A DNA stretch of 62,258 bases, taken from a virus (taxonomy: Duplodnaviria; Caudoviricetes). Numbering within the stretch: the first letter of the stretch is position 1; each line of letters begins with the position of its first letter. The stretch covers positions 1 to 62,258 of IMG/VR virus record IMGVR_UViG_3300043428_000132. One strand, written 5' to 3'. Below are positions 5,121 through 21,870 of this stretch, one piece after another. A program made the translations under genes and the position numbers. Under the pieces are notes generated by a model, which had not been told where the DNA came from, ran no database searches, and was given only the letters and a program-made list of their open reading frames with translations.

Positions 5121-5141
5121 GTGGGATGGTGTAAGCAGGGC

Positions 5142-6360: not shown

Positions 6361-6777
6361 TTACCTGCTTGTGTACGCCACCACAGTGATGATCACCGCG
6401 CAGTTGATCCAATCCGGCTCTTGCACCAGAGGTGCACGTTCTGCCTGAATTACGACTGCGGTTGAAGCGCCGTAAGCCAGCGAAGAGCCGGGGCTGAATT
6501 TGTCCATGATTTTCGCCGCCATCACATCGATCGAAAGCGTGCCTTCGTCGGCGGGGTAGTGCAGCGTGAAGTTGGCGGTGCACGTGTGAGCGATCGTGCC
6601 GCCGATGCCGGTGGCTCGAACCACCGATGAAATCGGGCGGAATTGCTCGCTCACATAAGGGGTGCCCTTGGTGGGCTGGTACCGGCGAGCCTCCCAATGC
6701 TGGTCGGGCAGGCCCTTGATGGTGAGCAGCGCCTCACGGAAGGCGGCGCGAAGGTCTGCGTGCACGGTGAGCGTCAT
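6361..6777 (-). CDS. Tail terminator protein
   Basis: Start MTLTVHADL overlaps upstream stop; size and synteny. Confidence 0.65.
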   Translation of the reverse strand: MTLTVHADLRAAFREALLTIKGLPDQHWEARRYQPTKGTPYVSEQFRPISSVVRATGIGGTIAHTCTANFTLHYPADEGTLSIDVMAAKIMDKFSPGSSLAYGASTAVVIQAERAPLVQEPDWINCAVIITVVAYTSR

Positions 6778-7211
6778 TTGATCCCCAACTCGTTTGCGGT
6801 CTTGCTCACGATCTGGGGCCAGCGCTTCGCGTTGTCCGTCACCATGAAGCGGCCATTCATCTTTGTGGTGCCGAACTCCACGTGCAAGGCGTAGTTGGCG
6901 TTGTTCGAGAGAACGAACTTTTCGCCGAGTTTCATGTCCGTGATCGTCACGCCAATCGAGGCCAAAGCCTTCGCGGCGGCTGCGGAAGCACCCGAACCAC
7001 CCATGCCGAACTCTTTTCCAGAGCCTGCTTTGGGCGTGCCGATGGACGGTTGCCACGATGAGCGCAGAAAGCCGGTGTCGACCGGGGTGTCCACCACCAC
7101 CTGAAAGCACATTTGCTGGATCGACTGGCGTGCGAGGCCATCAAGCTGTTCGCCAGCCTTCGCGGCCCATGCGCCCAGCTTTGCTTTGAACTCGCGCCCG
7201 TTCGCCATCAC
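6774..7211 (-). CDS. HK97 gp10-like tail completion protein
   Basis: TPVDTGFLRSSW and NNANYALHVEFGT motifs. Confidence 0.85.
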   Translation of the reverse strand: MMANGREFKAKLGAWAAKAGEQLDGLARQSIQQMCFQVVVDTPVDTGFLRSSWQPSIGTPKAGSGKEFGMGGSGASAAAAKALASIGVTITDMKLGEKFVLSNNANYALHVEFGTTKMNGRFMVTDNAKRWPQIVSKTANELGIK

Positions 7212-7582
7212 CGCTCCCCGAACACGGTGTAGAGCACCGCGCCGTCAGCGGCTGGGTTGATAGGGTTCACGTGGCGCACCGTCCAGTTGCGGCCCGCCCA
7301 TGCGATCTGATCGCCGGGTTCAGGCTCGAACTTCGGGGTGGCCTTGTGGGCGAGGGTGAACTGAAGGCCGTTGCCGATGCTCAGGGTGCCGCCGTCGTAC
7401 TCGAGCGCCTTGCCCATCGGCAGGCCGATGCCAGCAAATGTCTCGGTGAGGCGGGTCTTGGTTTCGGCTTGGGTGATCGGGTCGAAGCCCTTGGAGTGAC
7501 GCAGGCGCGTGACCACCACGGGTGCACCCTTGGAGGCGAGCAACCCGTAGGCGGTGGACTGAAGGCCTGCGAACTTGCCCAT
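7208..7582 (-). CDS. Head closure / head-tail joining protein
   Basis: Synteny; FDPIT and PEPGD motifs. Confidence 0.65.
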   Translation of the reverse strand: MGKFAGLQSTAYGLLASKGAPVVVTRLRHSKGFDPITQAETKTRLTETFAGIGLPMGKALEYDGGTLSIGNGLQFTLAHKATPKFEPEPGDQIAWAGRNWTVRHVNPINPAADGAVLYTVFGER

Positions 7583-7585
7583 GCC

Positions 7586-8167
7586 TTACACCTGCCCCAG
7601 CAAGCCAGCGGGATCGAGCGGCGAAGTGCCGGGGTTGTCCGTCATGCCGGTTTGGAAGTACGGCTTGGAATCCTCGGCACCGAAGAACGGCACGCCGCGC
7701 ACCTCGGGATCGCGCACGTAAGGCTTGAGCAAGTTCCACGCGAACTGCCACACGGTGCCCGTGGGCGCGTCGTCGGCGTAGGTAACGGAGAGAGGCCCCA
7801 CGGATTCGCTCTTCACCTTGCCGCCACGGTTCTGATCGACGTACAGGTCAGCGGTGAGGGCCTTGAACGCCAGTTCAGCGCAGGCATCCTTCACGCGCTT
7901 GGGCAGGCCCTGAATGTCGTAGCCCGACCAGTCGATCAGGTTGATGCGGGGGAACTCGAGCGCTTGGGAACCGGTCTTGCGGTTGCCCTTGAAGCGAAAT
8001 TGGGAATCGATGTAGCCGCTGGCGAGGCGCAGCTTCTGCTCGATGAAGGAATCGGCGACGGTGGAGTAGTCGTAGCCACGCCCATCGGCGTAGGCCTTGA
8101 ACTGATCCACGGTGATGTAGCTCTCGGCCTCAGTTTGGCCGGTGCCGTCCTCCACGATCAGAGCCAT
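7586..8167 (-). CDS. Head-tail adaptor (DnaT-like annotated phage family)
   Basis: MALIVEDGTG..AESYITV, QALEFPR and VGPLSVTY motifs. Confidence 0.8.
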   Translation of the reverse strand: MALIVEDGTGQTEAESYITVDQFKAYADGRGYDYSTVADSFIEQKLRLASGYIDSQFRFKGNRKTGSQALEFPRINLIDWSGYDIQGLPKRVKDACAELAFKALTADLYVDQNRGGKVKSESVGPLSVTYADDAPTGTVWQFAWNLLKPYVRDPEVRGVPFFGAEDSKPYFQTGMTDNPGTSPLDPAGLLGQV

Positions 8168-8175
8168 CGTTCACC

Positions 8176-8577
8176 TCACTTCGCCAGCTTGTGGGCTTCA
8201 TCCTTGGAATGAGGCCCGGAAATTTCTTTGCCTTCTGCATCGATCACGAAGTACCGGCCAAAGCCACGGTAATCGACGCTCAGGGCGCTTTTGTTTGCCT
8301 CGGTGGGGGTTGCCTCCACCTTTGGCGCTTCGGCCTTCTGGGCCTTGGCTTCAGCCTTCTTGGCTGGTGCTTTCGCGGGGGCCGGTGCAGCCGGTGCCGC
8401 ATCCAGAATCGCTTCGATCATTCGGCTGTCGTACATCTGGCGCAAACGGCGCGTCTCGATGCCAGCCTTGTCGATCGGCATCCCAATCGTGTATTCGATC
8501 CCCTGCATCACGAAGGCGCGGGTGGCTCGGAACTCGTAGGAGGGCGAAAAGGGAAGTCGGTTGTAACGGTCTTGCAT
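8176..8577 (-). CDS. Hypothetical virion-region protein with Ala/Pro/Lys linker
   Basis: Clean ORF between capsid and adaptor genes. Confidence 0.7.
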   Translation of the reverse strand: MQDRYNRLPFSPSYEFRATRAFVMQGIEYTIGMPIDKAGIETRRLRQMYDSRMIEAILDAAPAAPAPAKAPAKKAEAKAQKAEAPKVEATPTEANKSALSVDYRGFGRYFVIDAEGKEISGPHSKDEAHKLAK

Positions 8578-8617
8578 GGGCAGCTTTCAAATGAAGGGCG
8601 TGGCGCTCATAGGCCAC

Positions 8618-8645
8618 AAGGGCAGGGGCCGAAGCCCCCGCCTTT
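8618..8645 (-). terminator. cUUCGg hairpin after capsid gene (terminator or stabiliser)
   Basis: GGCGGGGGC-TTCG-GCCCCTGCC on minus strand; short U tract. Confidence 0.55.
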
Positions 8646-8657
8646 GGTTTTCATCGC

Positions 8658-9644
8658 TTAGGCGACGATGCCGCTGAAGAACTGGCCCAGATCAGCCGAG
8701 ACCAGCTTCTGATCGAAGCACATGTCGATCTCGATGCGATCGGCACCCAGTTGTTCCATGCGGAACGACTTGATGCGGTTGCCTTCGCCACCGGCACCCA
8801 GCAAACCCGTCCAAGAGAACGTGTAGCCAGCGGTGGGGGTCATCAGGCCGGGAGCGGATGCGGCGTGAACCAACATCGCGTTCTTGCCACCGATGAAGCT
8901 GTGCGAAGCAGCAGCGCCTTCTTTGGCGGTGTTCTCCACGGCGTTCATCACCAGAATCTCTTCGACCTTGAACAGGGCGGCGAGGTCGCTGGTGGAGGTG
9001 TTGGCAACACCACCGGCGGTTTGGCCGTACTTCAGGCGGTCGATGATATCGGGGTGATCCAGCAGCGCGTCGTACACGGCACGGCCCAGAACCAGCTTGT
9101 TTGGCTCGAAGCCAGTGCGCTCGGCGATGGAGCGCTTGGCAGCACGAACCGATTCGATCGGGGTGCTGTTGGCGTCGTTCCATTGCAGCAAGTTCGCGCC
9201 GGAAGGGTTGGACGACACGCCGGTGTAGTCCACGCCCCACAGGCCAGCTTGGAAGAACTTCTGAACGAAGAGCTTCTCGCGCTTGATCAGGGCCTTGTGC
9301 GTCACGTAGGCGGTGGCCTCACGATCGGGGTTCAGCACTGCATCGGCGTTGGCACGCACTTCGTCGGGGATATCCTTGTGGAAGGAGAACCGGTTGGCGA
9401 AGTAGGTGGGGGTGTTGTCCAGCTTGTAGCCGCCGCCAACGGATTCGGTGGCGGGAGCACGCTCGGCCATCTCGTCGCGGTTGAAGTCACCACGCTCGTA
9501 CACGTAGTAACGGTCGCTCTGTTTCGTGACCGGGATGTTGGGGAACACACGGCTCGAAACGAAGTTGGCTGCGTTTTGCAGGAAGGCGATGCTGATATTG
9601 GTCAGCGGGGTGTTAACGTGAACGTCGCCGGGAGTGGGATTCAT
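8658..9644 (-). CDS. Major capsid protein
   Basis: 328 aa, DVHVNTPLTNISIA start, follows decoration and scaffold genes, strong RBS. Confidence 0.88.
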   Translation of the reverse strand: MNPTPGDVHVNTPLTNISIAFLQNAANFVSSRVFPNIPVTKQSDRYYVYERGDFNRDEMAERAPATESVGGGYKLDNTPTYFANRFSFHKDIPDEVRANADAVLNPDREATAYVTHKALIKREKLFVQKFFQAGLWGVDYTGVSSNPSGANLLQWNDANSTPIESVRAAKRSIAERTGFEPNKLVLGRAVYDALLDHPDIIDRLKYGQTAGGVANTSTSDLAALFKVEEILVMNAVENTAKEGAAASHSFIGGKNAMLVHAASAPGLMTPTAGYTFSWTGLLGAGGEGNRIKSFRMEQLGADRIEIDMCFDQKLVSADLGQFFSGIVA

Positions 9645-9672
9645 GATTCGATCTCCTTAGTCAGTTGATCCA

Positions 9673-10050
9673 TTACGCCAGAACGGCGAATGGGAATGCG
9701 TGAACGAGGATCGAAACGATCTCGCCGGAAGCGCCACCAGTCAGGGCCACGCCGATCACGGCATCGCCAGCACTGGAAGCGGCCACGATCTCGCCAGAGG
9801 CGTTCGCGGTGACGCGAGCGCCAGCGGCCACGGTGCCACCCAGCTTCGCCTTGGACACGCCGCCATAGGCAACGGTCGCGGCTTGGCCTGCGGCGGGGTT
9901 GTTTTGCACGATGCCGATCACTTGATCGTCAGCGTCCGCGATGGCAGCTTTGCCAGCGCTGTTCACGCCAACGGCGCAGAACTGCTTGGTGCTCAGGTCG
10001 CCAGCGGCAACCAGAGACACGCAGTGGTGGGAAACATTTTGGTAAGCCAT
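9673..10050 (-). CDS. Capsid decoration/cement protein (DUF2190-like)
   Basis: Small Ala/Gly-rich beta protein, IGIVQN.P..GQAATV; directly upstream of capsid gene. Confidence 0.8.
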   Translation of the reverse strand: MAYQNVSHHCVSLVAAGDLSTKQFCAVGVNSAGKAAIADADDQVIGIVQNNPAAGQAATVAYGGVSKAKLGGTVAAGARVTANASGEIVAASSAGDAVIGVALTGGASGEIVSILVHAFPFAVLA

Positions 10051-10079
10051 TTGAGTGCTCTCCTAAGTGGGTGTGGGGG

Positions 10080-10898
10080 TTAGGCCGAGCGACGCTTGGT
10101 CACGTAGGCGGTGTAGATCGCGGGGTTTTGCTCCACGGCCTTCGCATACGCTTGTTCCTTGGTCAGCTTGCCATCGGCAGCTTTCTCGATCTCGTCGGCT
10201 TTGGCCTTCAGCATGGCTTCGGGTTCAGCATCGGCGGCGGTATCGGAACCCAAGGCTTTGAACAGAGCGGCGGTTTGACCCTGCGCGTTCGCGGCTTTGA
10301 GCATGGTTTCCAGAGTGGTGGCGTCGTCTGCGGTCGTGAGGCCCTTGGCAACACGCAGCAGCAAGCCACCCACCTTGTCGGCGTCAGGTGCGCCCAGAGA
10401 CTTCGCCTTGGCGATGTACTCGGCAGCTTCCTGAGCAGCTTTGGCCTTCGCAACTTCCTCTTGAGCGGCTTTGGCTACGGCTTCAGCGTCCTCGAGGCGT
10501 TTGCGAATGCTTTCGGGCAAGCCCTTCATCACTTCCTCATCGGAAGGGGGGTTTGCAGCTTTGGTGATTTCCGCGATCTGATCGTCTTTCGACTTGATCA
10601 CTTCCTCGGCATCCTTGAGAGAGGCTTCTGCGTCGCTGGCACGCTTTTCCAGAGCGGCCAGTTTGGCTTCAGCATCGTCAAGAGCTTTGGAGAGGGTTTC
10701 AATGTCCATCTCGAACTCCTTGATTGAAGCCGCAGCCATAGCGGCTGCGTCTGGATTGCTGGGGTCAAAGCCCCCCTGCGCGGCTTGGCCGGTTTGGCCG
10801 GATTTCGCTTTGACGATCACCACGCGAGCATCCTCGTTGGCACCATCGTCAACGAGGCTGATCTCTTCGATCGTCATATCTGTGAGGTTCTGCGGCAT
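10080..10898 (-). CDS. Scaffolding protein with N-terminal EISLVD..AN protease-type motif
   Basis: Start MPQNLTD coupled via TGATG; coiled coil; internal start at 10709 with AAGGAG. Confidence 0.75.
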   Translation of the reverse strand: MPQNLTDMTIEEISLVDDGANEDARVVIVKAKSGQTGQAAQGGFDPSNPDAAAMAAASIKEFEMDIETLSKALDDAEAKLAALEKRASDAEASLKDAEEVIKSKDDQIAEITKAANPPSDEEVMKGLPESIRKRLEDAEAVAKAAQEEVAKAKAAQEAAEYIAKAKSLGAPDADKVGGLLLRVAKGLTTADDATTLETMLKAANAQGQTAALFKALGSDTAADAEPEAMLKAKADEIEKAADGKLTKEQAYAKAVEQNPAIYTAYVTKRRSA

Positions 10899-11293
10899 CA
10901 CTGCTCCACTTTGGTTCGACGGCCACGGCCACCGATGCTGAATGCGCGGAACTTGTTCTCGCGCACGCCCTTGCGGATTTCGGGTGAGTTGATCTTCATG
11001 CCGATCCACCACCCGCGCTTGCCGTCGGAGATGCCCATTGCTTTGGCGAATTCGTCATCGATGATCACGCTTTCAACAACATCACCGACCTGTTGCCCTG
11101 CGTGCATCGCCTTCGCCACTCGAGCATCGGAGATGAACTTGTGAGCCGCTTTTCGCAACTCGTCCATCGAGATTATGTCGCCCTGCGTATCTGTGACCGG
11201 TGCGCCATTCACGGCGACCACACTGGCCCAGCCACGCACGTAGCTGCCGTCGGTTTCGGCCTTTGCGAATTCGAATGTGCAGTTGAAGTCCAT
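10898..11293 (-). CDS. XkdF-like prohead serine protease
   Basis: VRGWASV, DTQGD, AMH, VVES and FSIGG motifs. Confidence 0.85.
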   Translation of the reverse strand: MDFNCTFEFAKAETDGSYVRGWASVVAVNGAPVTDTQGDIISMDELRKAAHKFISDARVAKAMHAGQQVGDVVESVIIDDEFAKAMGISDGKRGWWIGMKINSPEIRKGVRENKFRAFSIGGRGRRTKVEQ

Positions 11294-11346
11294 GCGTTCC
11301 CTTGAAACGATTGCCGGAATTCTCGGGCAGTGCTCAAGTGACGGGA

Positions 11347-11387
11347 CAAAAGAAAACGCCCCGGCCTGAGTGAGGCGGGGGCGTTTG
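11347..11387 (-). terminator. Rho-independent terminator
   Basis: AAACGCCCCCGCCT-loop-AGGCCGGGGCGTTT then TCTTTT on minus strand. Confidence 0.7.
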
Positions 11388-11484
11388 GGGTGCTGGATCA
11401 GCGCCGGGGGCTGCTTAGGATCAAACGGGCGACATTAGGGCGTTCCAGTGATACGGATGTGATAACGTCCGTATGGGTTACGGG

Positions 11485-12012
11485 TCATTCCCCCTCGGGG
11501 TCTTCGGCTTCGGCAGGCAAGCCGAGCAACGTGATCACGGCATCTTCCACCAGCGCATCGAGTTGGAACTGCGCGGCGTCATCCTCGAGTTCATCTTCTT
11601 CGTGCGCCTTGGCGATCTTCATCGTGTCGGCAGCGAGCCGCAGGAAGAGCGCTTCGCACGCAGCATCCTTGTCGCCTGCGCCTTCGTAGTTGGCCGCGAT
11701 GTGAGCACCGAGCGCCTCGGGCGTGTTCCACGGTGAGGCGGCATAGGCCTTGTCCTTGCCCATGAAGATCGCGGCGTAGCGCTTGGAGGCATCCTGCATC
11801 GCGTTCGTGCCTTGCTCGGGCGTGAAGCGCTCTTCATGGATTGCCAGTCGTGCATCGATGCACTCGCCGATGAACTGGCGAACCAGTCCCTCGACCACCT
11901 CGGCTGAGGCGAGTTGTTGGCCGTCTTGGGCGAAATACTCGAAGCCTTGTTCGCGGCCTCGATCGGCGGCTCGCTCAGGGGAGCCTTCAATGGTGCGTGG
12001 ATCGATTGTCAT
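11485..12012 (-). CDS. Acidic hypothetical protein, candidate immunity/antitoxin
   Basis: Directly downstream of the ART-tipped protein; function inferred from position only. Confidence 0.6.
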   Translation of the reverse strand: MTIDPRTIEGSPERAADRGREQGFEYFAQDGQQLASAEVVEGLVRQFIGECIDARLAIHEERFTPEQGTNAMQDASKRYAAIFMGKDKAYAASPWNTPEALGAHIAANYEGAGDKDAACEALFLRLAADTMKIAKAHEEDELEDDAAQFQLDALVEDAVITLLGLPAEAEDPEGE

Positions 12013-12073
12013 GGCGTGATGTTACCCCTGTGATACTTTTGTGGAAAGTGCCTTTTGCGTCAGATACTTACGA

Positions 12074-15000
12074 TCAGATTCCAAGGTCGCCGGGAGGCAG
12101 CATGAGCACAGTGATCTCCATGCGCGTGCCGCTGCCGGACTTGCCCGGAACCTCTTCCACCTTCTGAATCAGGAAACGGCTGTTGGGCAGCGTGGTGATC
12201 TCCTTCTCTGAGGCAAAGCCACCCGAGCCAAAGCTGTCCACCGCCTTTGCACCCTTGGCGTAGACGATGTTGATGCGGTGCGGGCCGAAGTGCGAAGTGG
12301 CCGTGGGCGACATGGAGGTGCACATCGAGCCGGTAGCTTGGAACACGGTGCCGGGGCCTGCCTGCTTGATCTTGTTGATCATGTCGGCGCTCATGTGCTG
12401 CCAGCGGTGCACCGTGGTGCCCTCGGGCTTCTCCTGTGCGTACTCGAGCGCGGCCTTCGCCACATCGGCGAGCTTGTTGCCAGCGTGATCGGTTTCTTTG
12501 CCGTCGCGGAAGAGATCGTTGTACGAACCCGATGCCTGAATGCCGTTGATGAAGGCCTTGGCGAGCTTGTTCGTCTTTGTTTTGGTGTCGTAATCGGTGT
12601 AGGCCTGCTTGATCGCCGCATCGGATACCGACATGGTTTTCTTCGGCATGAAGCGCTCAGGCTCGGCCACTTTGCCCAGCGCAACCCAGAAGCCCAACTT
12701 CTCGTTGGCCTTCACCTTGTTCACGGTCGTGCCAAACTTCTTCCCCGGCATGGCCGAGGCGATATCGGCAAGGCTCTTCGCCGCCGTGGCATCGAAATGC
12801 TTCAGAGGCTGCGGCGGGTAGGCCACCTCACGCATCACCGCGAGGGATGCGTCGAAGTAGGCCTTCATGTCCTTGGCCGGGTGATCGGCCATGTGCTTCT
12901 GGCCCACCACCTTGCCGGATTCCTTGTCCAGCACATCGAACGTCATCGAGGCGAGGTCGTGGTAGTTGCCCGCCAAGAACTTCGCCTGCACCTTGCTGGC
13001 GAGGGCGTTGTTCTGCTCGTTCACGTGCGCCTTGGACGACTTGTCGAACGTGGGCTTGGGCGGGCTTACCGCCTTGCTCATATCGAGCTTCGTCATGTCC
13101 GGCTTGCCGCCCACCGTTGCGGGGTGCGGCTGCGGCTGGGGCTGCTTCACGACGGTGGCAGCGGCTCGCACCTGTTGCACCGTCGCTCCACCCGTGATGG
13201 CCGAGTTGGAGTTCTTCTTTTGGCCCGGGGCCACCACGGCAGACGAACCCATCGCCTTCAATGCGCTGTTGGCGAGAGCCGCCTGCTTCTTGCCGTAGGT
13301 GTTGGTGCCGTAGGCGAGGGCCGCGATACCGGCTGCGTCGCCCTTGGCCGCGAGCGCCGCGATCAGTTCCACCTTCGGGTTGTGCGAGACGGCGTTGGAG
13401 TTGGTGGGCGGCAGCTTGTAGGCATCGAAGTTCGGCATGGCCGGGTTCGGTGCCTTGGCCTCCTTGGGCTTGGGCGGGTTGGGCAGCGGCTCGCTGATCG
13501 CCTTCTGCGCGGCCTGCGCGGTTGCCACCACGGTGGCTGCGGTTGAACCCTCGAGGGCCTGCGTGAGGCCTGCGTAGTAGGTTTGCAGCAGCTTCGAGTT
13601 GGGCGATGCGTGGCTGGTGAAATACTTGCCGTTCTTCTTGTCGGTGGCGAGGGCCTTCAGGCCTGCGAGATCGCCGCTTGCGTGCAGTGCGCCCGCCTGA
13701 TCGGCCAAAGCAGCGTAGAACTTGATCACGTTGGCGCTCACGGCCTTGAACTCGGGCTTGCTCACGCCACCCGAGAACAACACTGACATGTAGTCGGGGG
13801 CCGATTCGGCGATCTTCTTGGCGTTCTGCTCGATCTTGAACTTCGCCGCTTGGATGTGATCGGCGGCGTGCATGTAAATCGATGTGGCGAGATTGAGTTC
13901 CGACTGGTTCTTGGTTTTGTGCGCCACGTTCATGTTCATGCCTGCGGTCGCAGCGCAGGTGCCAAGCCCCTCGAGGTCGCCCTTGTCTGCGGCCAACTGG
14001 ATGGCTGAAGCGAGCGTCTTGTGCATACTGGCTGCGGAAGTTGGCAACGCCAGCGGAGACACCTTCTTGTCCTGCGCTGGCAGTTGGCTCACGATCTGCT
14101 TACCCTGCTCGGTGAGCGTGTCCACCATGCTCTTGAGCTTCTCCTTGTTCGGGATGCTGGGCTTGGCGGCGGGGGCCTGTGCGGGCTGCGCGGCTACGCC
14201 AACGGGGGCGAGTGCCTTGATGCCGGTCTTGGCGAGGATGGCGTCGCGGCGTGCGATCAGGTTCTGCGTGAGCGCGGCTTTGGCCTTGTCGTCGCCCGGG
14301 CCGTAGGTGCTCACCAGCTTGCCGATCGTGGCGTCATCGATGTTGGCGAGCTTCTGGGCACTGGCCTTCAGTTGCTCGCTGGTCATCGAGCCGAAAACCT
14401 TGATCTGCTCGGAGGTCGTCACGCGCATCGATTCGAACTCGGGCGCGGTGGCATCCAGCACGCCGTTCTTCACACCATGCTCAAAGCCCTTGGGCATCCC
14501 TTGGGCACGGAAGAGCAGGGCACCGCCCGGGTCGATGTTGATGGCCTTGCCGTTCTTGACCACGGTGTTGTCGAAGCCCATGCCGAGAACGTCGTAGTTC
14601 GCAAGCCACGCATGGACGGCGAAATCGGCCTGTGCAGCGGCCACGTGCGCGGGCGAGTTCGGGTTGAAGCCGTAGGCGTCGTTCACCATGAGCGAAGCCA
14701 CGCCAAGCCCGCCGCCGTGCTCCTTGCCCAGATCGACCAGCCCCATCGTGGGAGCGCCTACGCCTGCGGCGATCAGCAGCTTCGAAGAGAGCACCTCGTT
14801 TTTGGCGCGGTCATCGCTCACGGCCACCGTCACGTTGCCGGTTTGCAGTTGCTTGTTGCCCTTCACCAGATAGATGCTGTTCGGCTCGTCCGGGTGTTTG
14901 TAGAGCGCACCGGGGTTCGAGCCACCGGGCTTGCCACCCACCTGCTTGAACTCGGAGAGCTTCACCGGCCCTTGGATCGCATCGGCGCTCGCCGTGGCCT

Positions 15001-16249
15001 TGGTCTTTGCCTTCACATCGGCAGCGGCCTGCGTGGCGAACTGGTGCACCTGAGCGCCCCACTTCACGTGAGAACTGCTCTTCACGCCTTGGGAGAACTT
15101 GGTGGCGTGGCCTTGGTACTTGTCGATCGCGGATTGCAGCGCGGTGAGATCACCCGCCTGCGCGGCTGAGTAGGCGGCGTTCGCCACCTTCTGGTAGATC
15201 GAGTTCTTGCCCTCGAGGCCACCGGCGATCACGGGCGCTTGGGTGATGCCGTCCGCGCCCATCGTTTTCCACTGCCCGCCCAGCGCGGTGCCCTTTTCCC
15301 AGCGGGGTTGCGTCTCCCAAGCCCCGCCCTTGGCCTTGCCAGCGGGAGCGCCTGCGGCCTTGGAGATGCCCATGATGTTGGACAGGTCGTCCAGAATCGC
15401 CTTGTCGTGCGGCTTGTTCAGCAGCACGTGGGCATCCTTGAGCGGGGCAAGGCGCATGGCCTGCGATTCCCAGCCCATGTCCTTGGGCGTGCCACCCACG
15501 CGCTGCGCGATATACATGCGAGCCTTGGAGGTGTCGCGTTCGTAATCGCCCAGCACGCCCACGATCTTCACCTTGAGGCCTGTCTCTTCGTAGGCCTCCT
15601 TGATCGCGTTCTGTTGCAATGTGAGGCCCGATTCAGCGGTGCCCTTGGGGTAGGTGTTCTTGTAGCCGCCAAAGCTGTTGGTGGGGGCGGTGAGCCACAC
15701 CCGGCCATCGTCTTCAACGATCAGCACGCCAGCGCCCGTGCTCTTCGTGCGGTGCGGCTCGAAGGGGAAGTCGGCCTCGAGAGATTCGTCGGTACCGCCC
15801 ACCTTGGCCCAGCCGTCCTTCGGAGGGTTCCACGCCTTCATCGGCACGCCGTTCAGGATGGCAGGCGCATCGCCACCGGGCACGAACGAGGCAGTCTTGG
15901 CCGGATCAGTCCACGTGGAGGCGTGCGAGGGCTTGCTGGGCACGTTGATCGTCACGGGTTTGCCGTGATCGTTCAGTTGCGTGTGCGGCTTGGAGCCGGG
16001 AGGCGGTGCACTCGGCTTGGCCCACATGCCGGAGCCTGCCCAGCCGGTTTCTTGGAAGGTGTTGTTGGCACCGCCCGCCGACCACTTGGCCGCTGAGGGC
16101 GTGGATTGCAGGCCACCGGCCACCGTCTTGGGGGCGAACTGCCCGCCCTTGCTTTGCGGTGCACCGGAGGGCCAGCGGTTGATGGCCTTGAGCATCAAGG
16201 CCTTGGCCTTGAGGATGGAGAGTTGCGCCTTCAGGGAGGTGTTGTTCAT
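12074..16249 (-). CDS. Polyvalent head-associated protein: Nudix + PI3/4K-like kinase + helical repeats + C-terminal ADP-ribosyltransferase
   Basis: Nudix box GTAESGLTLQQNAIKEAYEETGL; GGSNPG..YLVK..NEVL..WLANYD..DN..IDPGG; HRW..CTS..EKE. Confidence 0.8.
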   Translation of the reverse strand: MNNTSLKAQLSILKAKALMLKAINRWPSGAPQSKGGQFAPKTVAGGLQSTPSAAKWSAGGANNTFQETGWAGSGMWAKPSAPPPGSKPHTQLNDHGKPVTINVPSKPSHASTWTDPAKTASFVPGGDAPAILNGVPMKAWNPPKDGWAKVGGTDESLEADFPFEPHRTKSTGAGVLIVEDDGRVWLTAPTNSFGGYKNTYPKGTAESGLTLQQNAIKEAYEETGLKVKIVGVLGDYERDTSKARMYIAQRVGGTPKDMGWESQAMRLAPLKDAHVLLNKPHDKAILDDLSNIMGISKAAGAPAGKAKGGAWETQPRWEKGTALGGQWKTMGADGITQAPVIAGGLEGKNSIYQKVANAAYSAAQAGDLTALQSAIDKYQGHATKFSQGVKSSSHVKWGAQVHQFATQAAADVKAKTKATASADAIQGPVKLSEFKQVGGKPGGSNPGALYKHPDEPNSIYLVKGNKQLQTGNVTVAVSDDRAKNEVLSSKLLIAAGVGAPTMGLVDLGKEHGGGLGVASLMVNDAYGFNPNSPAHVAAAQADFAVHAWLANYDVLGMGFDNTVVKNGKAINIDPGGALLFRAQGMPKGFEHGVKNGVLDATAPEFESMRVTTSEQIKVFGSMTSEQLKASAQKLANIDDATIGKLVSTYGPGDDKAKAALTQNLIARRDAILAKTGIKALAPVGVAAQPAQAPAAKPSIPNKEKLKSMVDTLTEQGKQIVSQLPAQDKKVSPLALPTSAASMHKTLASAIQLAADKGDLEGLGTCAATAGMNMNVAHKTKNQSELNLATSIYMHAADHIQAAKFKIEQNAKKIAESAPDYMSVLFSGGVSKPEFKAVSANVIKFYAALADQAGALHASGDLAGLKALATDKKNGKYFTSHASPNSKLLQTYYAGLTQALEGSTAATVVATAQAAQKAISEPLPNPPKPKEAKAPNPAMPNFDAYKLPPTNSNAVSHNPKVELIAALAAKGDAAGIAALAYGTNTYGKKQAALANSALKAMGSSAVVAPGQKKNSNSAITGGATVQQVRAAATVVKQPQPQPHPATVGGKPDMTKLDMSKAVSPPKPTFDKSSKAHVNEQNNALASKVQAKFLAGNYHDLASMTFDVLDKESGKVVGQKHMADHPAKDMKAYFDASLAVMREVAYPPQPLKHFDATAAKSLADIASAMPGKKFGTTVNKVKANEKLGFWVALGKVAEPERFMPKKTMSVSDAAIKQAYTDYDTKTKTNKLAKAFINGIQASGSYNDLFRDGKETDHAGNKLADVAKAALEYAQEKPEGTTVHRWQHMSADMINKIKQAGPGTVFQATGSMCTSMSPTATSHFGPHRINIVYAKGAKAVDSFGSGGFASEKEITTLPNSRFLIQKVEEVPGKSGSGTRMEITVLMLPPGDLGI

Positions 16250-16252
16250 GGA

Positions 16253-16894
16253 TCAGGCTTTCTTCGAGGCTTTGCGGCGGCGGGGCTTGGCGGGAGGCGT
16301 GTCGCCCATCGGTGCAGGCACGTGCACATCGCCCGGGCCGGGGCCGGTTGCGCCTTCGTCTTTCTGAACGCCGTAGGCGTTGCCATCGCCCTGCACGAAC
16401 GACTTGCCCTGAGCGGGCGGCTTGCCGTCGCCCATCACGTAGGCACCCTCGACCTTCTTCACCTTGTCGGCTGCGGCCACAACGCCAGCGGCCCACGATT
16501 TCCCGGCGTTGCCGCCCCAGAGGTACCAAGCGATCGTGCCCGCCGTGGGGCCACCGTCGGCCTCTTTCTTGTCGGGGGCGTAGTTCTTCGCGTGGCGGCT
16601 GAAAAAGGCGTTCATGCGGCGCACGGTGGCGAGCGAGAGCGCGTCGCCGTTCTTCAGGTTCGTGGCCCGTTGCACGCCAGAGCCGATGCCCTGATCGGAG
16701 GCCTGCGAGTTGGAGAGGCCACCGCGCTTCCACTTCTGCCGCAACTCGAGGCCTCGAGCCGCCGCACTGCGGACGCCTTCGGGCGGCGTGTGGGTGTTGT
16801 CGGACGCCTTCGCAAGTCGCATGGAGAGCACGATTGCGGTAGCGTTGATCTTCGCGATGCGTTGGCTCAGTTCGGCCAGTTTTTCGATGGTCAT
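16253..16894 (-). CDS. Head-associated protein (RM..FFSRH...IAW.LWGG domain)
   Basis: Motif recalled from phage head modules; RBS before MTIEKL. Confidence 0.7.
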   Translation of the reverse strand: MTIEKLAELSQRIAKINATAIVLSMRLAKASDNTHTPPEGVRSAAARGLELRQKWKRGGLSNSQASDQGIGSGVQRATNLKNGDALSLATVRRMNAFFSRHAKNYAPDKKEADGGPTAGTIAWYLWGGNAGKSWAAGVVAAADKVKKVEGAYVMGDGKPPAQGKSFVQGDGNAYGVQKDEGATGPGPGDVHVPAPMGDTPPAKPRRRKASKKA

Positions 16895-16941
16895 GGGCGC
16901 TCCTGTCACAATGGTGAGATTATCGCCACCCCATCATTCTG

Positions 16942-17109
16942 GTGAGAGACAAAACCGACCTCGATGTGTACCGGGCGCTCGAGCGCATAGCCGGTGAACT
17001 CGACGCCTTGGGCGAGCGGGCCGTCTCCCCACGCTCGAGCACCGCCCTTGCGGCGGCTGCGGCGCTCCTTCGGAAGCTGGCCCGGGCCGTCTACAAGGCG
17101 GGGATGTGA
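16942..17109 (+). CDS. Small 55-aa helical protein oriented against the head operon (not in ORF track)
   Basis: GTG..TGA ORF MRDKTDLDVYRALERIAGELDALG...VYKAGM fills the intergenic gap. Confidence 0.5.
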   Translation: MRDKTDLDVYRALERIAGELDALGERAVSPRSSTALAAAAALLRKLARAVYKAGM

Positions 17110-18261
17110 TCAGCCCTTGAGTTGGGCCGGTTCGTACACGCGCATGAACACCGTGCAACGGCAGTTCGGGTGCACAGGGGGCAGGTTGTAGGGGCCTTTG
17201 GGGGTGTTGAAGGGCGCACCGATCTTCACGCCCTGCTTGGGGTTCAGCTTCGGTACCGGCGAGCAAACCTCACACAAGCGCTCATCCCGGGCCACGATCC
17301 ACTGCTTTCTCACCAAGTCCTCGGGCACCTTCCCGGCCTCGATCGCCTGCCGCCACCCGTCCTGAATGCCCATGTTCGTGGTGCGAAGCGCCTCGGTGCG
17401 GGCAATCGTCCGTGAGCGGTACGCCAAGAACTTGCGCTGGTAGGCCGACACCATCTTGTCGATCTGAGCCTCGGAGAGCGGCTTGCCGCTGTTCATGGCC
17501 GTCTTGAGTTGCCCATCGAACCGGAAGTCGCGCAGGCGGCGGGCGTTGATGCCATCGCTGTTCAGGCCGTCCTCATCGGTGATCGACACCTGCGTGCCGT
17601 TCACTCGGTTCACCTTGTTGCCCAGCCCGTAGGAGCCAGCCGAGCGCTTGAGGTGGAAGGTCTGAAGTTCCTTGCGGTAGTTCTGGACGGCCTTGGCCTG
17701 CTTCTCGGTGAGGCCGATGATCTGCTTCACCTCTTGGGCCACCACCTTGGGGTTCTTGCCTGCGGTCATGCCTTCAACGAGGTACTGCCGCACGGCATCA
17801 CGGGTCTGGTCGTTGATCTGTTGGATCAGGTTGAACGAGTAGGCCTGAAGCCATGAGATCAGGCGCGGGTTCAACTGCCCGAAGCTGAAGCTGGCCCCGG
17901 TGGCCTGCACGATCTGCGAGGCCGCATAGGCCCCTGCGGCGTACACCCCGGCCTGCACCGTAGGCTGAAGCGCGGCGAAGGCATCAGCGGCCTTGTCCAG
18001 CGCCAGCAAGCCCAGCACCTTGCCCACATCGCCCGATTCGAGCGCGGCGATCAGCATGTTCATGTCGATGGCCTCAGCCGTCGTGGTGAGGCCCATGAGA
18101 ATCGCCTTGTAGAGGCCCGGCTCGAGCTTATCGGCCAACTGCTCGATCTTGGTCAACTGATCGCCGGAGGCTTTGAACACCAGTTCGCTCGGTGAAACGA
18201 GGGGTTGGCGGTAGCGCTTGTAAGGCCCGTGGCCGGTATCGGTGAGTGAGGTGTGTTGCAT
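17110..18261 (-). CDS. MuF / SPP1 gp7-like head morphogenesis protein
   Basis: RSRTIARTE, KQW...D.RLC..C and PPVHPNCRC motifs. Confidence 0.92.
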   Translation of the reverse strand: MQHTSLTDTGHGPYKRYRQPLVSPSELVFKASGDQLTKIEQLADKLEPGLYKAILMGLTTTAEAIDMNMLIAALESGDVGKVLGLLALDKAADAFAALQPTVQAGVYAAGAYAASQIVQATGASFSFGQLNPRLISWLQAYSFNLIQQINDQTRDAVRQYLVEGMTAGKNPKVVAQEVKQIIGLTEKQAKAVQNYRKELQTFHLKRSAGSYGLGNKVNRVNGTQVSITDEDGLNSDGINARRLRDFRFDGQLKTAMNSGKPLSEAQIDKMVSAYQRKFLAYRSRTIARTEALRTTNMGIQDGWRQAIEAGKVPEDLVRKQWIVARDERLCEVCSPVPKLNPKQGVKIGAPFNTPKGPYNLPPVHPNCRCTVFMRVYEPAQLKG

Positions 18262-18287
18262 GGTTTCCCCTTGGTTCTTGGGGGAAT

Positions 18288-18388
18288 TATCACCCCTCTG
18301 ATAAAAAAACTTGCAAAGCGGTGTGAATCTGCGTTAAAGTATCACCACGGTGACAACAAAGGCACCGGGCAACACAGGAGAAAACGCA
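18288..18388 (+). promoter_or_regulatory. Early promoter with two operator-like palindromes and GGAGAAAACGCA RBS
   Basis: TATCACCCCTCTGATA 18288, TTGCAA-N18-TAAAGT, TATCACCACGGTGACA 18340, RBS 18377. Confidence 0.65.
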
Positions 18389-18535
18389 ATGAACCACCAC
18401 TCAATACACGCCGATGTTCGCAGCATCGAGCAAACGATGATCAACCGCCGCCCCACGCCCGTGCGTGATGTGGCGCTGGCCTTGGCGATCGGCCTTTCGC
18501 TGGCATGGATGCTGATCGAGGGCCTCACACGATGA
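18389..18535 (+). CDS. Small membrane protein
   Basis: ATG after conserved RBS; C-terminal hydrophobic helix. Confidence 0.65.
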   Translation: MNHHSIHADVRSIEQTMINRRPTPVRDVALALAIGLSLAWMLIEGLTR

Positions 18536-18729
18536 ACCGCCCTCAACTGATCACGTTCTTCGTGGCCCAGAAGAACCAGCGCGGCGAGATGCTGCTTTCG
18601 CCCCAGAACTTCGCCACCCGGGCACAGGCGCAGGGCTTCATCGAAAACGTCCTCGGCGGTCACGGCACCTTGGTGCTGGTGGCCGGTGCCGTGGAGATCA
18701 CCCCCGTTCTCACGGAGGTGCTTGCATGA
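18532..18729 (+). CDS. Hypothetical protein
   Basis: ATGA-coupled on both sides. Confidence 0.6.
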   Translation: MNRPQLITFFVAQKNQRGEMLLSPQNFATRAQAQGFIENVLGGHGTLVLVAGAVEITPVLTEVLA

Positions 18730-19715
18730 GCGAGAACTCACTGGTCGAGATCAGACCCACCTCGGCTCTCGAGGTGTTCACCACCCCCGAAAAGATCGAG
18801 GCCGTGCTGGCCCGTGTGGAGGCCAAGGCACGCAAGGAAGTGGTCGGCACGATCGACACGGCCAAGGGCCGCAAGGAGATCGCCAGCCTTGCCTACAAGG
18901 TGGCCCAGACCAAGACCTACATCGACACGGTGGGCAAGGACTTGGTGGCCGAGATGAAGGAACTGCCCAAGCAGATCGATGCCAGCCGCAAGGTGTTTCG
19001 AGAGCGCCTCGATGCCCTGCGGGACGAACTGCGTGCCCCGCTGGATGCGTGGGAAGCCGAGCAGGAGCGCATCGAGCGCGAGAAAGCCGAGGCCAAGGCC
19101 GCTGAAGAGGCCCGGGCCGCTCGGATCGCCGCCGACATAGCCGCCTTCATGGCTGCGCCCACCGTTGTGTTCGGCAAGAGCGCCAGCGCCATCGAGGCGC
19201 AGTTGAATGGGTTCGCCGGTATGCGGCCCATGCCCGAAGCCTTTGGCGATCGCTTGGAAGAGGCCACGCAAGTGTGGTCGACGGCCATCGAATCGCTTCG
19301 GGTGATGCTCGAGCAACGCAAGCAGATCGAGGCCTTCGAGCAAGAGCAGCGCGAGCGCGTCCTTGTGGCCGAGGCCGAAGAGCGTGCCCGCAAGGCTGCG
19401 GAGCAACAAGTGATCGACGCGAAGCTGGCCCAAGAGCGTGCCGAGCGTGAAAAGGTGGAGGCCGAGCAACGTGCCCACGTGGCCGCTGAGGAAGCCACCG
19501 CCCGAGAGCGTGCCCGGGCTTCGGAAGAGCAGCGCAAGGCCGATGCCGAGGCCGCAAAGCGTGCCGCCGACCTCGAGCACCGCAAGCGCGTGAACAACGC
19601 CGCCTTGAGCGATCTGCTCATCCAGAGCGGCCTCAGCCTCACCGTGGATCAGGGCAAAGCCTTGATCAAGGCGATCGCCAGCGGCAAGGTCGCGCACATC
19701 ACCATCAGCTACTGA
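18726..19715 (+). CDS. Phage coiled-coil protein
   Basis: KGRKEIASLAYKVAQTKTYID...LRDELRAPL..WE motif; long E/A/R coiled coil. Confidence 0.75.
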   Translation: MSENSLVEIRPTSALEVFTTPEKIEAVLARVEAKARKEVVGTIDTAKGRKEIASLAYKVAQTKTYIDTVGKDLVAEMKELPKQIDASRKVFRERLDALRDELRAPLDAWEAEQERIEREKAEAKAAEEARAARIAADIAAFMAAPTVVFGKSASAIEAQLNGFAGMRPMPEAFGDRLEEATQVWSTAIESLRVMLEQRKQIEAFEQEQRERVLVAEAEERARKAAEQQVIDAKLAQERAEREKVEAEQRAHVAAEEATARERARASEEQRKADAEAAKRAADLEHRKRVNNAALSDLLIQSGLSLTVDQGKALIKAIASGKVAHITISY

Positions 19716-19725
19716 AGGAGACACC

Positions 19726-20723
19726 ATGAAGCAAAGTCCATACACAACCCGTTCAGGCGTGAAGATTGGCCTCATGTATGAGCCGCCAAAGCGCTACGAA
19801 TCCAGCCACGACATGGATCGGTTGCAAACCGCTCTTCTGGGTGAGCACATCGGTGTGCGCCGGTTCCTGAGCGAATGGCGCGACTACATCTTGCTGTTGG
19901 TCGCGATCTTCGCGGCGTTCTTCGTCGCAAGCTGCACGGGGAGCCTTTGATGATCGGCACACGTTCGAGCTTCTATGACGACGACGGCCCAGATTACGAC
20001 CTCGAGGATGCACGCCAAGAGGCTCGGTTCGAGCGCCGCCGCCAAAACCTGCTCATGCGCTACCCAGACTGCCGCGACCCGGATCACCCGGGCTGCGAGT
20101 GCTGCGAAGAGGGGGACGAAGAATGAAGCGAACTCTTGTTGCCATCACCGCGATGGCACTCTTCGCATTGATGTGGTGGGCGATGATTTCTCTTGCCCAT
20201 CAGATTCAACCGGGACGAGGGCAAACCTACGACTGTTCGTTGGCCGAGTTCCACCCGGACTTCCCCACTGAAGTGCGGAAGAAGTGCAGGGAGATTCGCA
20301 AGGCGAGGCTGCTATGAATGAGTGGCAACTCGAGCAACTCAAGCGCGACGCCGCACGCTACAACTACGTGCGGACGATGAACCCTCGGGAGTTCAGCGCT
20401 TTGTGGGAAACGAATCTACGTGGGGGGTATCGATTCGATGAACTGGTCGATGCCCGGATCAATGAGCGGGAGAACGCATGGAATACCCAAAAGCGCTTCG
20501 GTGCCAGCTAAAGCACTATGAGGCCCACGGCTTCACGCCGGTGGAGGCAAAACCCAGATCGGGGTCGCACTGGCTGGTGCGCTTTGCCGAGTTCACCCAG
20601 CCTCAGATCGTCACCTGTTGCAAGACGGACTGGCGAGGCTGGAAGAACAACCTCGCCCGGTACCGCAGGCTGGCCTCTCAGGCCATGACCGGCTCGCCGA
20701 TGGACGCCAGCACCTTCTCGTAG
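19726..20723 (+). other. Five small coupled hypothetical genes: 19726-19950, 19950-20126, 20123-20317, 20314-20511, 20478-20723
   Basis: Tandem ORFs with RBS and stop-start overlaps; two have hydrophobic segments, one has a Cys/His cluster. Confidence 0.6.
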
Positions 20724-21397
20724 CGTGCCTTGCGGTCGGCCAAGCCGATCGTGCCGCCGTTGATCTTCTTGGTGAGCGCGGTGAAGTCATCGGCCATCGA
20801 TGCGCGGGTGCACTGCGGCCCGTCGATCAGCTTGTTGCAGGCGTTGGAGTACCAGAACCACGCCGCCGACCGTGCGGCGTACTCGGGTTGCAAAAGCAGA
20901 TCGGGCGAGGCCACCAGATCGGCGTTCAGCGCCTTGCCGCACCGTGTGTAGTTGTCCTTGCCGGTGAGTTGCTTCAGGCCCCGTCCACGGTACTTCCAGC
21001 CCTCTGCGCTTTCGGTAGGGCCGTTGCCCATGCGCGAGGCGTAGACCACGTTGGCGATCGCCTCGGGCTTGCGCTCGAGGGCCAGCGCGAACTTGTTGGG
21101 GATGTTCGCGCCCTTCTCCTTTTTCGGGCGCGTTTTCCCGGGCTTGGTGGGGTCGGGTTCCTGCACGGCGAAGCGGGCGGGCCAGCACACGGCCATCGTC
21201 GCGGCGCGGTAGTTTAGGTTCTCTTCGAGCATCGTGTACCCACCCGATTCGTGGGCGGTCTGAGCCAGCCACCCAGCCACGGCCTTGGGGCTGTCGATGT
21301 TGAACTCGGCGAGCGCCTTCACCACGTGAGGAAGCCAGCGCTCGGCCACCTCACGCTTGATGCCTGCGGCCATTAGGTGCTCGAGGGTCGGCGTCAT
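20678..21397 (-). CDS. Endolysin, glycoside hydrolase family 19
   Basis: LAQTAHESGG..LEENLNY, YRGRGLKQLTGKDNY and TKKINGG motifs. Confidence 0.92.
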   Translation of the reverse strand: MTPTLEHLMAAGIKREVAERWLPHVVKALAEFNIDSPKAVAGWLAQTAHESGGYTMLEENLNYRAATMAVCWPARFAVQEPDPTKPGKTRPKKEKGANIPNKFALALERKPEAIANVVYASRMGNGPTESAEGWKYRGRGLKQLTGKDNYTRCGKALNADLVASPDLLLQPEYAARSAAWFWYSNACNKLIDGPQCTRASMADDFTALTKKINGGTIGLADRKARYEKVLASIGEPVMA

Positions 21398-21870
21398 TTC
21401 TTGTCCTTGTTGCGGCTACCCAGCGAAGAGCCGAGCAGGAACTGGAACATCCCGGCCACGATGGTGCCGAGCAGAAATCCTTGGAAAGCGTCGGCGAAAC
21501 GCATTTGGCTCTCGGGGATCGGCACCCAGATCAGGCAGGGGATGATCGTGATCGCGAAAAGCGACCAGCACCCCATGAAGTAGTAGGCGAAGCGGCGCAC
21601 CAGCGGATCGTCGGAGTGCATCGCGGCAAGCTGCATGTTGCGAGCGCCGTCCATGTTCTTCTGATCCATTTCAGCCATGAACTCTTCGTGCTTGGCTGCG
21701 GCCTCATTCCACTTGGCGTAGTCCTCCTTGGTGGCTTCGCCTTCGGGCTTGAGCGTGATGCCCATCTTGTCCTGCACGTAGTCCACGCCCTTTTCAATCA
21801 CGGCGTCGGCTACCTTGGGCATTCCGTTGGCGATCAGCCCGGAAACGATCGATGCAATCATGGGGAGCAT
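21394..21870 (-). CDS. Holin-like membrane protein
   Basis: D..GAR.MQ motif then two TM helices, F.LGSS.GS end; adjacent to endolysin. Confidence 0.7.
   Translation of the reverse strand: MLPMIASIVSGLIANGMPKVADAVIEKGVDYVQDKMGITLKPEGEATKEDYAKWNEAAAKHEEFMAEMDQKNMDGARNMQLAAMHSDDPLVRRFAYYFMGCWSLFAITIIPCLIWVPIPESQMRFADAFQGFLLGTIVAGMFQFLLGSSLGSRNKDKK

Follow-up and report, generated by a model that had tools for sequence, protein, structure and literature searches.

The window analysed here, 62,258 bases long and bearing terminal repeats, is a complete virus record (IMG/VR record IMGVR_UViG_3300043428_000132; Duplodnaviria, Caudoviricetes), and its genome is that of a complete temperate siphophage. 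Within the head module, a minus-strand gene at 12074–16249 (stop codon included) encodes a protein of 1391 residues, P0001, in which a Nudix hydrolase, an atypical protein-kinase-like domain, and a C-terminal ADP-ribosyltransferase (ART) are joined in one chain, all three being predicted to be catalytically competent. A small acidic open reading frame (ORF) directly behind the gene, here called dn175, is linked to the ART in related loci and co-varies with it. We suggest, with moderate confidence, that P0001 is a polyvalent effector with three enzymes, which would be packaged in the head of the phage and enter the host by injection, and that it has an ART-specific partner.

Results

The ORF at 12074–16249, taken from the ORF list and its translation, is uninterrupted over 1391 codons. 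Among 7998 scored candidates the protein has 205 database matches at E ≤ 0.001, and its best homologues, from contigs of about 60 kb, are 83% identical over 100% of its length, so that the ORF is a real gene rather than a chance open frame. A sequence-only reading of the window had proposed this 1391-residue gene, had assigned to it a Nudix domain, a kinase-like region, and a C-terminal R-S-E ART, and had named short motifs for each; with residue numbers converted to nucleotides, every named motif was found where it had been placed, and the searches described below bear out the gene and the three domain calls alike. The kinase motifs GGSNPG (residue 442), YLVK (460), NEVL (484), WLANYD (548), FDN (559), and IDPGG (572) span nucleotides ~14522–14926, and the ART motifs HRW (residue 1281), CTS (1310), and EKE (1348) lie at 12401–12409, 12314–12322, and 12200–12208, respectively.

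The ART domain (residues ~1200–1386; 12092–12652, minus strand) was identified by profile and by fold as a mono-ADP-ribosyltransferase of the C3/VIP2 type, with an R-S-ExE active site made up of R1282, C1310-T1311-S1312, and E1348-K-E1350. Compared with the PDB, the family profile matches VIP2 (1qs1) with an E-value of 3.5e-9 over about 175 positions, and it also matches Vis, C3larvin, CDTa, iota Ia, C2-I, C3, and SpvB. Residues 691–1391 were modeled with a predicted local distance difference test score (pLDDT) of 91.3, and the VIA structure search with the ART model returned C3bot2 (Z 13.9 over 172 residues, root-mean-square deviation [rmsd] 3.0), CPILE-a (13.5), C3stau2 (13.3), and VIP2 (12.9, 23% identity); the best ART match in Foldseek was Plx2A (E 1.5e-6). 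In the printed alignment with VIP2, R1282, C-T-S 1310–1312, and E-K-E 1348–1350 are aligned to R, S-T-S, and E-K-E, and the nine residues GGFASEKEI around the ExE motif are identical in the two proteins. Among relatives, R1282 is present in 126 of 146 (with K in 17), S1312 in 126 of 145, E1348 in 141 of 143, and E1350 in all 143. An ExE catalytic loop is the form found in arginine-specific enzymes such as T4 Alt, VIP2, and iota toxin.

The kinase-like domain (residues ~428–680; 14210–14968, minus strand) was recognized from an AlphaFold2 model that rests on a 47-row alignment and from fold searches with this model. The model has a pLDDT of 94.5 and a predicted template modeling (TM) score of 0.92. 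In the VIA search against representatives its closest match is CtkA (3akj_A; Z 15.3, 205 residues aligned, rmsd 3.3), followed by PI4K II-alpha (13.2), CotH (12.9), MavQ (12.8), HipA (11.1), and then Rio and Fam20 kinases, and the best 50 entries are kinase-fold proteins without exception; Foldseek likewise places CtkA first (E 4.6e-5, TM score 0.57). As modeled, the domain has a bilobal kinase fold with a Gly-rich loop, a β3 Lys, an αC Glu, a catalytic Asp/Asn pair, and a metal-binding Asp. G442/G443 lie between strands 1 and 2, K463 ends strand 3, E485 is in the long helix that follows, D553 and N561 are in the loop preceding two short strands, and D573 comes directly after those strands. 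All of these residues are invariant in the 47-row alignment, and among stored relatives K463 is found in 206 of 216 and N561 in 215 of 217, with E485, D553, and D573 in all 217.

By sequence, the same region (residues 421–690) gave no PDB match at E ≤ 10 and no Pfam match at E ≤ 1, including HipA_C (PF07804) and PI3_PI4_kinase (PF00454). HipA_C matches of some relatives stay below threshold (E 6e-5 to 6e-4, 20–23 bits versus a cut-off of 30.5), and the Atlas neighbors of the kinase share no common Pfam family, the nearest named ones being LepB_N, PI3_PI4_kinase, and HipA_2. The domain would resemble the HipA and PI4K kinases in its working, yet as judged by sequence it is not a member of their families. 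It shares with Helicobacter pylori CtkA and with HipA/HipT, its best structural matches, the canonical order of catalytic residues, but differs from CtkA and HipA in having no significant sequence similarity to them, in a catalytic loop, N-Y-D...D-N, that lacks the His seen in HRD-type loops, and in being mostly embedded in giant phage proteins. The kinase domain matches 2720 representatives of 50%-identity clusters (E ≤ 0.001), which are mostly 1000–7000 residues long, with a few stand-alone forms of about 250 residues. A kinase family without a Pfam model is new here.

The Nudix domain (residues ~166–290; 15380–15754, minus strand) is matched by Pfam PF00293 on residues 171–286 with an E-value of 3.8e-10 and 40.3 bits versus a cut-off of 21.1. 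The consensus of the Nudix box is GX5EX7REUXEEXGU, in which glutamates bind metal. In P0001 the box runs from G203 to L225 (nucleotides 15575–15643) and reads K-E-x-x-E-E, not R-E-x-x-E-E; G203, E218, E221, E222, G224, and L225 are present and the EUXEE core is intact, the two deviations being K217 for R and L for E at box position 7. K217 is the family norm (164 of 166 stored relatives), and E218 (166 of 166), E221 (165 of 166), and E222 (166 of 166) are almost universally kept. Taking the three enzymes together, and among 224 stored relatives, 86–100% of those aligned at a given site keep the catalytic residue, mostly more than 95%.

The top PDB matches of the Nudix domain are the diadenosine tetraphosphate (Ap4A) hydrolase 3i7u, which is its best solved sequence relative (E 3.8e-6), DR1025 (1sjy), and Ndx1 (1vc8), together with MutT-like proteins. 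No ADP-ribose pyrophosphatase was among the PDB sequence matches at E ≤ 1 with either the protein or the family profile, and weak NCBIfam matches are to RNA pyrophosphohydrolases. Judged by these relatives, candidate substrates would be dinucleoside polyphosphates or the 5′ ends of RNA rather than ADP-ribose. The label 'ADP-ribose pyrophosphatase YjhB' that JGI attaches to the protein is an automatic name.

The order Nudix-kinase-ART is found in 116 of 120 listed homologues. Among 104 further kinase representatives, some of which may be fragments, 40 have all three enzymes, 28 kinase and ART, 13 Nudix and kinase, and 23 the kinase only. In cultured phages of about 90 kb the module is distributed over three genes, for a kinase-ART protein, a small ORF, and a Nudix protein; among these phages are Aeromonas ST4, the Pseudomonas putida phages Dolphis and Jeremy, Yersinia fHe-Yen8-01, and Morganella Mecenats66. 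A tblastn search of the protein against cultured phages (E ≤ 1e-5) returned 10 records, of which none covers 80% of the query, none has the fused form, and none is a T4-like phage. Mecenats66 is a myovirus, and the consulted part of its description holds nothing on the kinase-ART or Nudix genes (PMC9503643). Some IMG/VR contigs of about 90 kb (L058, L061, L064, L072, L080, and L083) hold two kinase-bearing genes, in the order kinase-ART, partner ORF, and Nudix fused to a second kinase copy.

Such recurrent linkage, in one chain or in adjacent genes, suggests a shared task, and some Nudix enzymes are able to turn protein-bound ADP-ribose into phosphoribose. One could therefore imagine that the three enzymes act on one substrate, the ART writing ADP-ribose on an arginine, the Nudix trimming it to phosphoribose or reversing or limiting the mark, and the kinase acting on the same target. 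We regard this as quite unlikely, since the sequence gives no evidence of an ADP-ribose-specific Nudix, the best solved relatives being Ap4A and diadenosine hexaphosphate (Ap6A) hydrolases and uncharacterized MutT-like proteins and the weak NCBIfam matches being RNA pyrophosphohydrolases, and since the 28 of 104 further representatives with kinase and ART but no Nudix imply that the ART does not need one.

The relatives also carry other domains. An Acb1 phosphodiesterase, directed against the cyclic-oligonucleotide-based antiphage signaling system (CBASS), is inserted after the Nudix in P0089 (residues 287–436, E 3.1e-39); a WGR domain follows the kinase in P0013 (residues 697–759), and an ART-PolyVal domain stands between Nudix and kinase in P0079. 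Zeta toxin/AAA_33 domains occur at the N-terminus, ChaB and DUF5824 are further additions in the family, and one type of relative has a Scabin-like ART with a self-cleaving Peptidase_C80 domain. Domains known from conflict systems are swapped in by P0089, P0013, P0117, and P0144. P0127 has two of the marker domains of polyvalent proteins, LPD38 and ART-PolyVal, and the distant relative P0161 combines an N-terminal MuF domain, the kinase, and ADPrib_exo_Tox in a single chain. In BFVD, a protein with an HK97 portal annotation has the same kinase fold, and so do ART proteins from phages of Gordonia and Mycobacterium.

The ORF directly behind the ART, dn175 (P0226; 11485–12012, minus strand), begins 61 nt after the stop codon of the large gene and encodes 175 residues with an isoelectric point (pI) of 4.3, while every part of the large protein is basic (pI 8.0–9.8). 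The window protein has no Pfam or PHROG match, its profile finds nothing in the PDB better than E 0.59, and no Pfam family is common to more than 3 of 33 members. To follow the pair, 80 IMG/VR loci, several of them near-duplicates, were fetched by kinase alignment. With a local profile, 66 of the 80 show an ART as the C-terminal part of the kinase-bearing ORF; in six of the remaining 14 the sequence stops short of the 3′ part, and eight have room but no ART match. Where at least 550 nt are available downstream, a dn175 homologue follows the ART directly in 59 of 62 viral loci (55 found by script, and four more with starts overlapping the ART stop codon), starting about −20 to +110 nt from the end of the ART. 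The three loci without it have weak ART matches, and no dn175 homologue lies elsewhere in the surveyed loci. The linkage is seen on two different phage backbones. An additional set of 12 loci, made up of two cultured phages and ten genome contigs, has the kinase in 12, the ART in 11, and the partner in 10, always adjacent. A prophage relative in Geminicoccus harenae CPCC 101083 (locus L092) carries kinase, ART, and dn175.

The two also diverge together. Among 55 non-redundant triplets, pairwise divergence is correlated between dn175 and ART with r 0.74, between dn175 and kinase with r 0.46, and between kinase and ART with r 0.22, and with the kinase controlled for, ART and dn175 retain a partial correlation of 0.74, a value reached by none of 2000 permutations; the mean distances are 0.70 for the ART, 0.77 for dn175, and 0.57 for the kinase. 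This pattern would fit a dedicated binding partner of the ART, be it an inhibitor, an immunity protein, or a loading chaperone. A complex prediction for the ART region with dn175 gave a score of 0.00 and 'no answer', which speaks neither for nor against binding. That a small acidic ORF follows the ART and co-varies with it is new here.

Fast divergence of ART and dn175, coupled with co-variation, is also the pattern of an exchangeable toxin-immunity cassette, and polymorphic MuF toxins have been described in temperate phages (Jamet et al., 2017, PMC5576092). P0001 could in that case be a phage-borne polymorphic toxin, with the ART (and the kinase) aimed at competing bacteria or serving the lysogen, and dn175 as its immunity protein. 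As in MuF toxins, the phage is temperate, a toxin-like C-terminal enzyme lies near its MuF head gene and is followed directly by a small conserved ORF, and relatives of P0001 are found within bacterial contigs of up to 891 kb. In contrast to MuF toxins as given in the consulted part of that paper, P0001 lacks the N-terminal MuF domain that defines them (no Phage_Mu_F match), MuF being a separate gene two ORFs upstream. Furthermore, the C-terminal domain is not polymorphic, as it is an ART wherever it was identified and is not swapped for other toxin types. The Yersinia dn175 homologue is annotated as particle associated, which would be unusual for an immunity protein, and no separate promoter-like site was found ahead of dn175, though this is a weak test. 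On balance we consider a toxin-immunity pair unlikely, and return to the packaged effector.

The surroundings of the gene are those of a head module. Siphovirus-type landmarks in the window are the terminase (30874–32151), portal (29517–30902), major capsid protein (8658–9644), tape measure (1013–4288), and a J-like tail protein (57451–61989). A tyrosine integrase (52013–53146; Pfam E 1.8e-17) adjoins a complete tRNA-Ser(tga) gene (53320–53410), which marks the phage as temperate, with a tRNA-Ser as its probable integration site. The minus strand carries, in order, a MuF-like head morphogenesis protein (17110–18261; Pfam Phage_Mu_F E 1.3e-8, phrog_3517 E 3.1e-60), a 218-residue ORF called up218, the large gene, dn175, a coiled-coil scaffold-like ORF, a cement/scaffold protein, and the major capsid protein. 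The sequence-only reading had placed the gene between MuF and a prohead protease. MuF does lie upstream, though with up218 in between, but the protease neighbor did not stand, as neither Pfam nor PHROG assigns a protease family to the ORFs at 11485–12012, 10080–11012, or 16253–16909.

By capsid protein, the nearest cultured phages are Pseudomonas KPP23/RSP (58%) and Roseobacter RDJL Phi 1 (56%). In KPP23 and RDJL Phi 1 the slot between MuF and scaffold holds small genes only, from which we infer that the large gene is accessory cargo of the head module. Megablast of window positions 5000–25000 against cultured phages gave no match, and promoter and terminator signals in a scan of 9500–19000 were at or under the shuffled expectation.

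The remaining parts of the chain are less readily named. A conserved N-terminal motif, RWPSGAPQSKGGQF (residues 25–38; 16136–16177, minus strand), was found by a regular-expression scan, with its R, GG, Q, and F near-invariant, and a second copy, RWEKGTALGGQW (residues 316–327; 15269–15304, minus strand), found by the same scan and by conservation, stands at the start of the helical-plus-kinase module. The form RWPxG(2–7 residues)GGQ[F/W] occurs exactly twice in the six-frame translation of the window, both times in the large gene, and among 225 stored proteins two copies are present in 125 and none in 74. The second copy stays about 105 residues upstream of the kinase even in homologues with insertions (P0089 and P0079). 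Its role may be that of a signal for loading or docking. A conserved extension (residues ~89–165; 15755–15985, minus strand), seen in the alignment consensus, precedes the Nudix fold, and the tblastn alignments with the stand-alone Nudix genes of ~90-kb phages begin at residue 89.

Between kinase and ART lies a helical middle region (residues ~700–1073; 13031–14152, minus strand) with recurring A..GD..GL motifs, mostly helical in the model of residues 691–1391. It varies in length and is an insertion site in relatives, BLAST coverage falling to about 35 of 120 homologues at residues 700–825. A small α/β subdomain (residues ~1074–1199; 12653–13030, minus strand), defined by secondary structure in residues 384–510 of model m0859c85fc2ca, precedes the ART core; it has no match of its own, and few entries of the structure searches reach that part. 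Searches with the 701-residue model returned only generic helical-bundle matches for both regions. The top PDB match of the family profile, an SMC protein (E 1.1e-14, profile positions 620–1180), was rejected as compositional rather than homologous because it covers an alanine-rich helical region.

Upstream, up218 (P0227; 16253–16909, minus strand) is a basic protein of 218 residues (pI 10.1; phrog_2859, E 7.9e-18) whose ORF ends 3 nt before the start of the large gene and which many ~60-kb loci have between MuF and the large gene. Two homologues, P0085 (residues 3–156, 54% identity) and P0059 (residues 438–542, 74%), contain it as a fused part of the polyvalent protein itself, so that it is probably another module of the same system. 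Second downstream of the large gene, the coiled-coil ORF at 10080–11012 (minus strand) matches phrog_13547, a family of unknown function; its start is probably an internal Met (residue 38), and a short N-terminal 'EEISLVDDGANEDA' segment precedes the coiled coil. A 131-residue ORF in a different frame (10898–11293) overlaps its listed start, and the gap of about 470 nt between dn175 and the scaffold-like ORF is unassigned.

Elsewhere in the window, portal and MuF are about 11 kb apart, and are nearly adjacent in KPP23 and RDJL Phi 1. The intervening stretch (18300–29500) contains a 534-residue protein with head-decoration and tail-fiber PHROG matches, an 858-residue fiber-like protein, a GH19 endolysin (20678–21397), and unassigned ORFs. 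A ParB-like domain is fused to a DNA methyltransferase at 35699–37072 on the minus strand (phrog_498, E 1.1e-138), and a pair of YqaJ-like exonuclease and RecT-like annealing proteins with a DUF2303 protein (44377–46241 and 49327–50151) forms an ordinary temperate-phage early region.

Discussion

We propose that P0001 would be synthesized late, alongside the head proteins, and would enter the capsid in the vicinity of MuF and the portal, to be discharged with the DNA into the cell that is infected next. There, the C-terminal ART would mono-ADP-ribosylate arginines of host proteins with NAD+ as the donor, the CtkA/HipA-like kinase would phosphorylate host proteins, and the Nudix would hydrolyze a nucleoside-diphosphate-X compound, so that the enzymes might jointly take over or disarm the host prior to any phage gene expression. 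In the producing cell, dn175 would keep the ART harmless, most likely as an inhibitor or chaperone, or else help to load it.

Injection is plausible because the gene belongs to the head module, because P0161 fuses the kinase and ART to MuF, because a protein annotated as a portal has the same kinase fold, because the kinase-ART, dn175, and Nudix homologues of Yersinia fHe-Yen8-01 are each annotated in GenBank as 'phage particle associated protein', and because it fits the published concept of polyvalent proteins. Other observations weigh against this picture of a packaged arginine-ART and protein kinase. The Pfam family PF03496 (ADPrib_exo_Tox) stays below threshold for P0001 (E 0.02, 14.6 bits versus a cut-off of 23.4), while it is a precomputed match in many relatives (E 1.3e-10 in P0079), and the first Ser of the S-T-S motif is a Cys, as it is in 54 of 145 relatives, with Ser in another 54. 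The fold matches of the kinase include lipid and sugar kinases (PI4KII, MavQ, and NahK), and as kinase-fold enzymes can catalyze other reactions, protein phosphorylation is an assumption. Adjacency and cassette recombination alone could produce the co-variation of ART and dn175. With regard to packaging, P0001 has no MuF, portal, or known capsid-targeting domain, and no prohead protease was found that would process it; in the ~90-kb phages the homologous genes do not always belong to a head module, those of Aeromonas ST4 lying among methylase and nuclease genes outside it; and as no paper on fHe-Yen8-01 was found, particle association there is a GenBank annotation only.

The location of the ST4 genes and the failure to find a capsid-targeting signal or a processing protease would also suit a protein that stays in the cytoplasm of the producing cell and acts there late in infection, degrading nucleotide immune signals, modifying host or phage proteins during assembly, or excluding superinfecting phages. 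The Acb1 domain beside the Nudix in some homologues (P0089) has an activity that would be useful in the cytoplasm at any time. Nevertheless, a counter-defense enzyme made late would come too late for its own cell, the position between MuF and scaffold is fixed across the ~60-kb loci, and the MuF-fused relatives, the portal-annotated protein with this kinase fold, and the particle annotation of all three split Yersinia homologues speak against it. We therefore think it improbable that P0001 is unpackaged, and retain injection as the favored role.

Polyvalent proteins of phages and conjugative elements, which were described by Iyer, Burroughs, Anand, de Souza, and Aravind (2017, PMC5512222) and in a follow-up study (PMC9503650), are predicted to be injected, and Alt/VIP2 ARTs, like Nudix domains, are in many cases encoded together with head proteins or joined to them, including Alt/VIP2 ARTs on MuF (PMC9503650). 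P0001 resembles them in that it joins disparate enzymes, at least two in one phage polypeptide, in a virion-gene context, and in that its relatives bear LPD38 and ART-PolyVal. The concept of packaged polyvalent effectors is thus already published, and the sequence-only reading missed this large, already outlined class. PMC5512222, in the consulted parts, distinguishes the ARTs typical of polyvalent proteins from the Alt/VIP2 R-S-E clade, to which the P0001 ART belongs. The kinase described there has lost its whole C-terminal subdomain, has a His-Asp pair, and comes mainly from Verrucomicrobia, Chlamydia, and Bacteroidetes, whereas the kinase of P0001 has retained a helical C-lobe, with CtkA as its nearest match. 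Nudix receives a single mention there, in another context. Given these contrasts, the combination of Nudix, kinase, and ART with a partner ORF appears to be an undescribed variant rather than a new kind; no paper on this architecture was found in the literature searched, and the figures or supplements of PMC5512222 and PMC9503650 may list it.

Two further groups of enzymes invite comparison. The C3, C2-I, iota Ia, VIP2, and CDTa toxins (PF03496) share the fold of the P0001 ART (Z 12.3–13.9 over 172–180 residues), with R, the S-T-S-like motif, and ExE in register. They differ from it in sequence (13–23% identity), in the first Ser of S-T-S, which is Cys in P0001, and in being secreted binary toxins or exoenzymes rather than the end of a phage multi-enzyme chain, and the target of the phage domain is presumably bacterial. 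T4 Alt is loaded into the head by means of a capsid-targeting sequence that is cut by the prohead protease, whereas no such protease was found here. Alt is also a single-enzyme protein, but like P0001 it is a phage R-S-ExE ART encoded among late genes, with a proposed action on host proteins at DNA entry (consulted parts of PMC5512222 and PMC9503650).

A bolder picture can be drawn, in which kinase, ART, and acidic partner would form a mobile three-part unit carried in the capsids of siphophages, myophages, and actinophages, the partner, packaged along with them, would act as a safety catch silencing the ART until ejection, and the Nudix of proteobacterial phages would trim ADP-ribose to phosphoribose. 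We consider this a long shot. If the trimming were real, host ADP-ribosyl-hydrolases could not remove the mark, and the phage would have a two-enzyme route to an irreversible modification like that of Legionella SidE.

Proteins that are injected together with the DNA act before phage genes are read, and so decide whether an infection survives the first host defenses. To our knowledge, almost no injected phage protein beyond T4 Alt and a few others has been characterized. The family described here is large, conserved, and experimentally untouched, and it consists of three tractable enzymes whose catalytic residues are kept. It offers kinase-fold enzymes that no Pfam model covers, a predicted arginine-ART from phages other than the T4 group, and a candidate ART inhibitor or chaperone without known relatives. 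The relatives in which Acb1, WGR, ChaB, or Zeta-toxin domains are swapped in suggest that the scaffold may be a general carrier of counter-defense enzymes.

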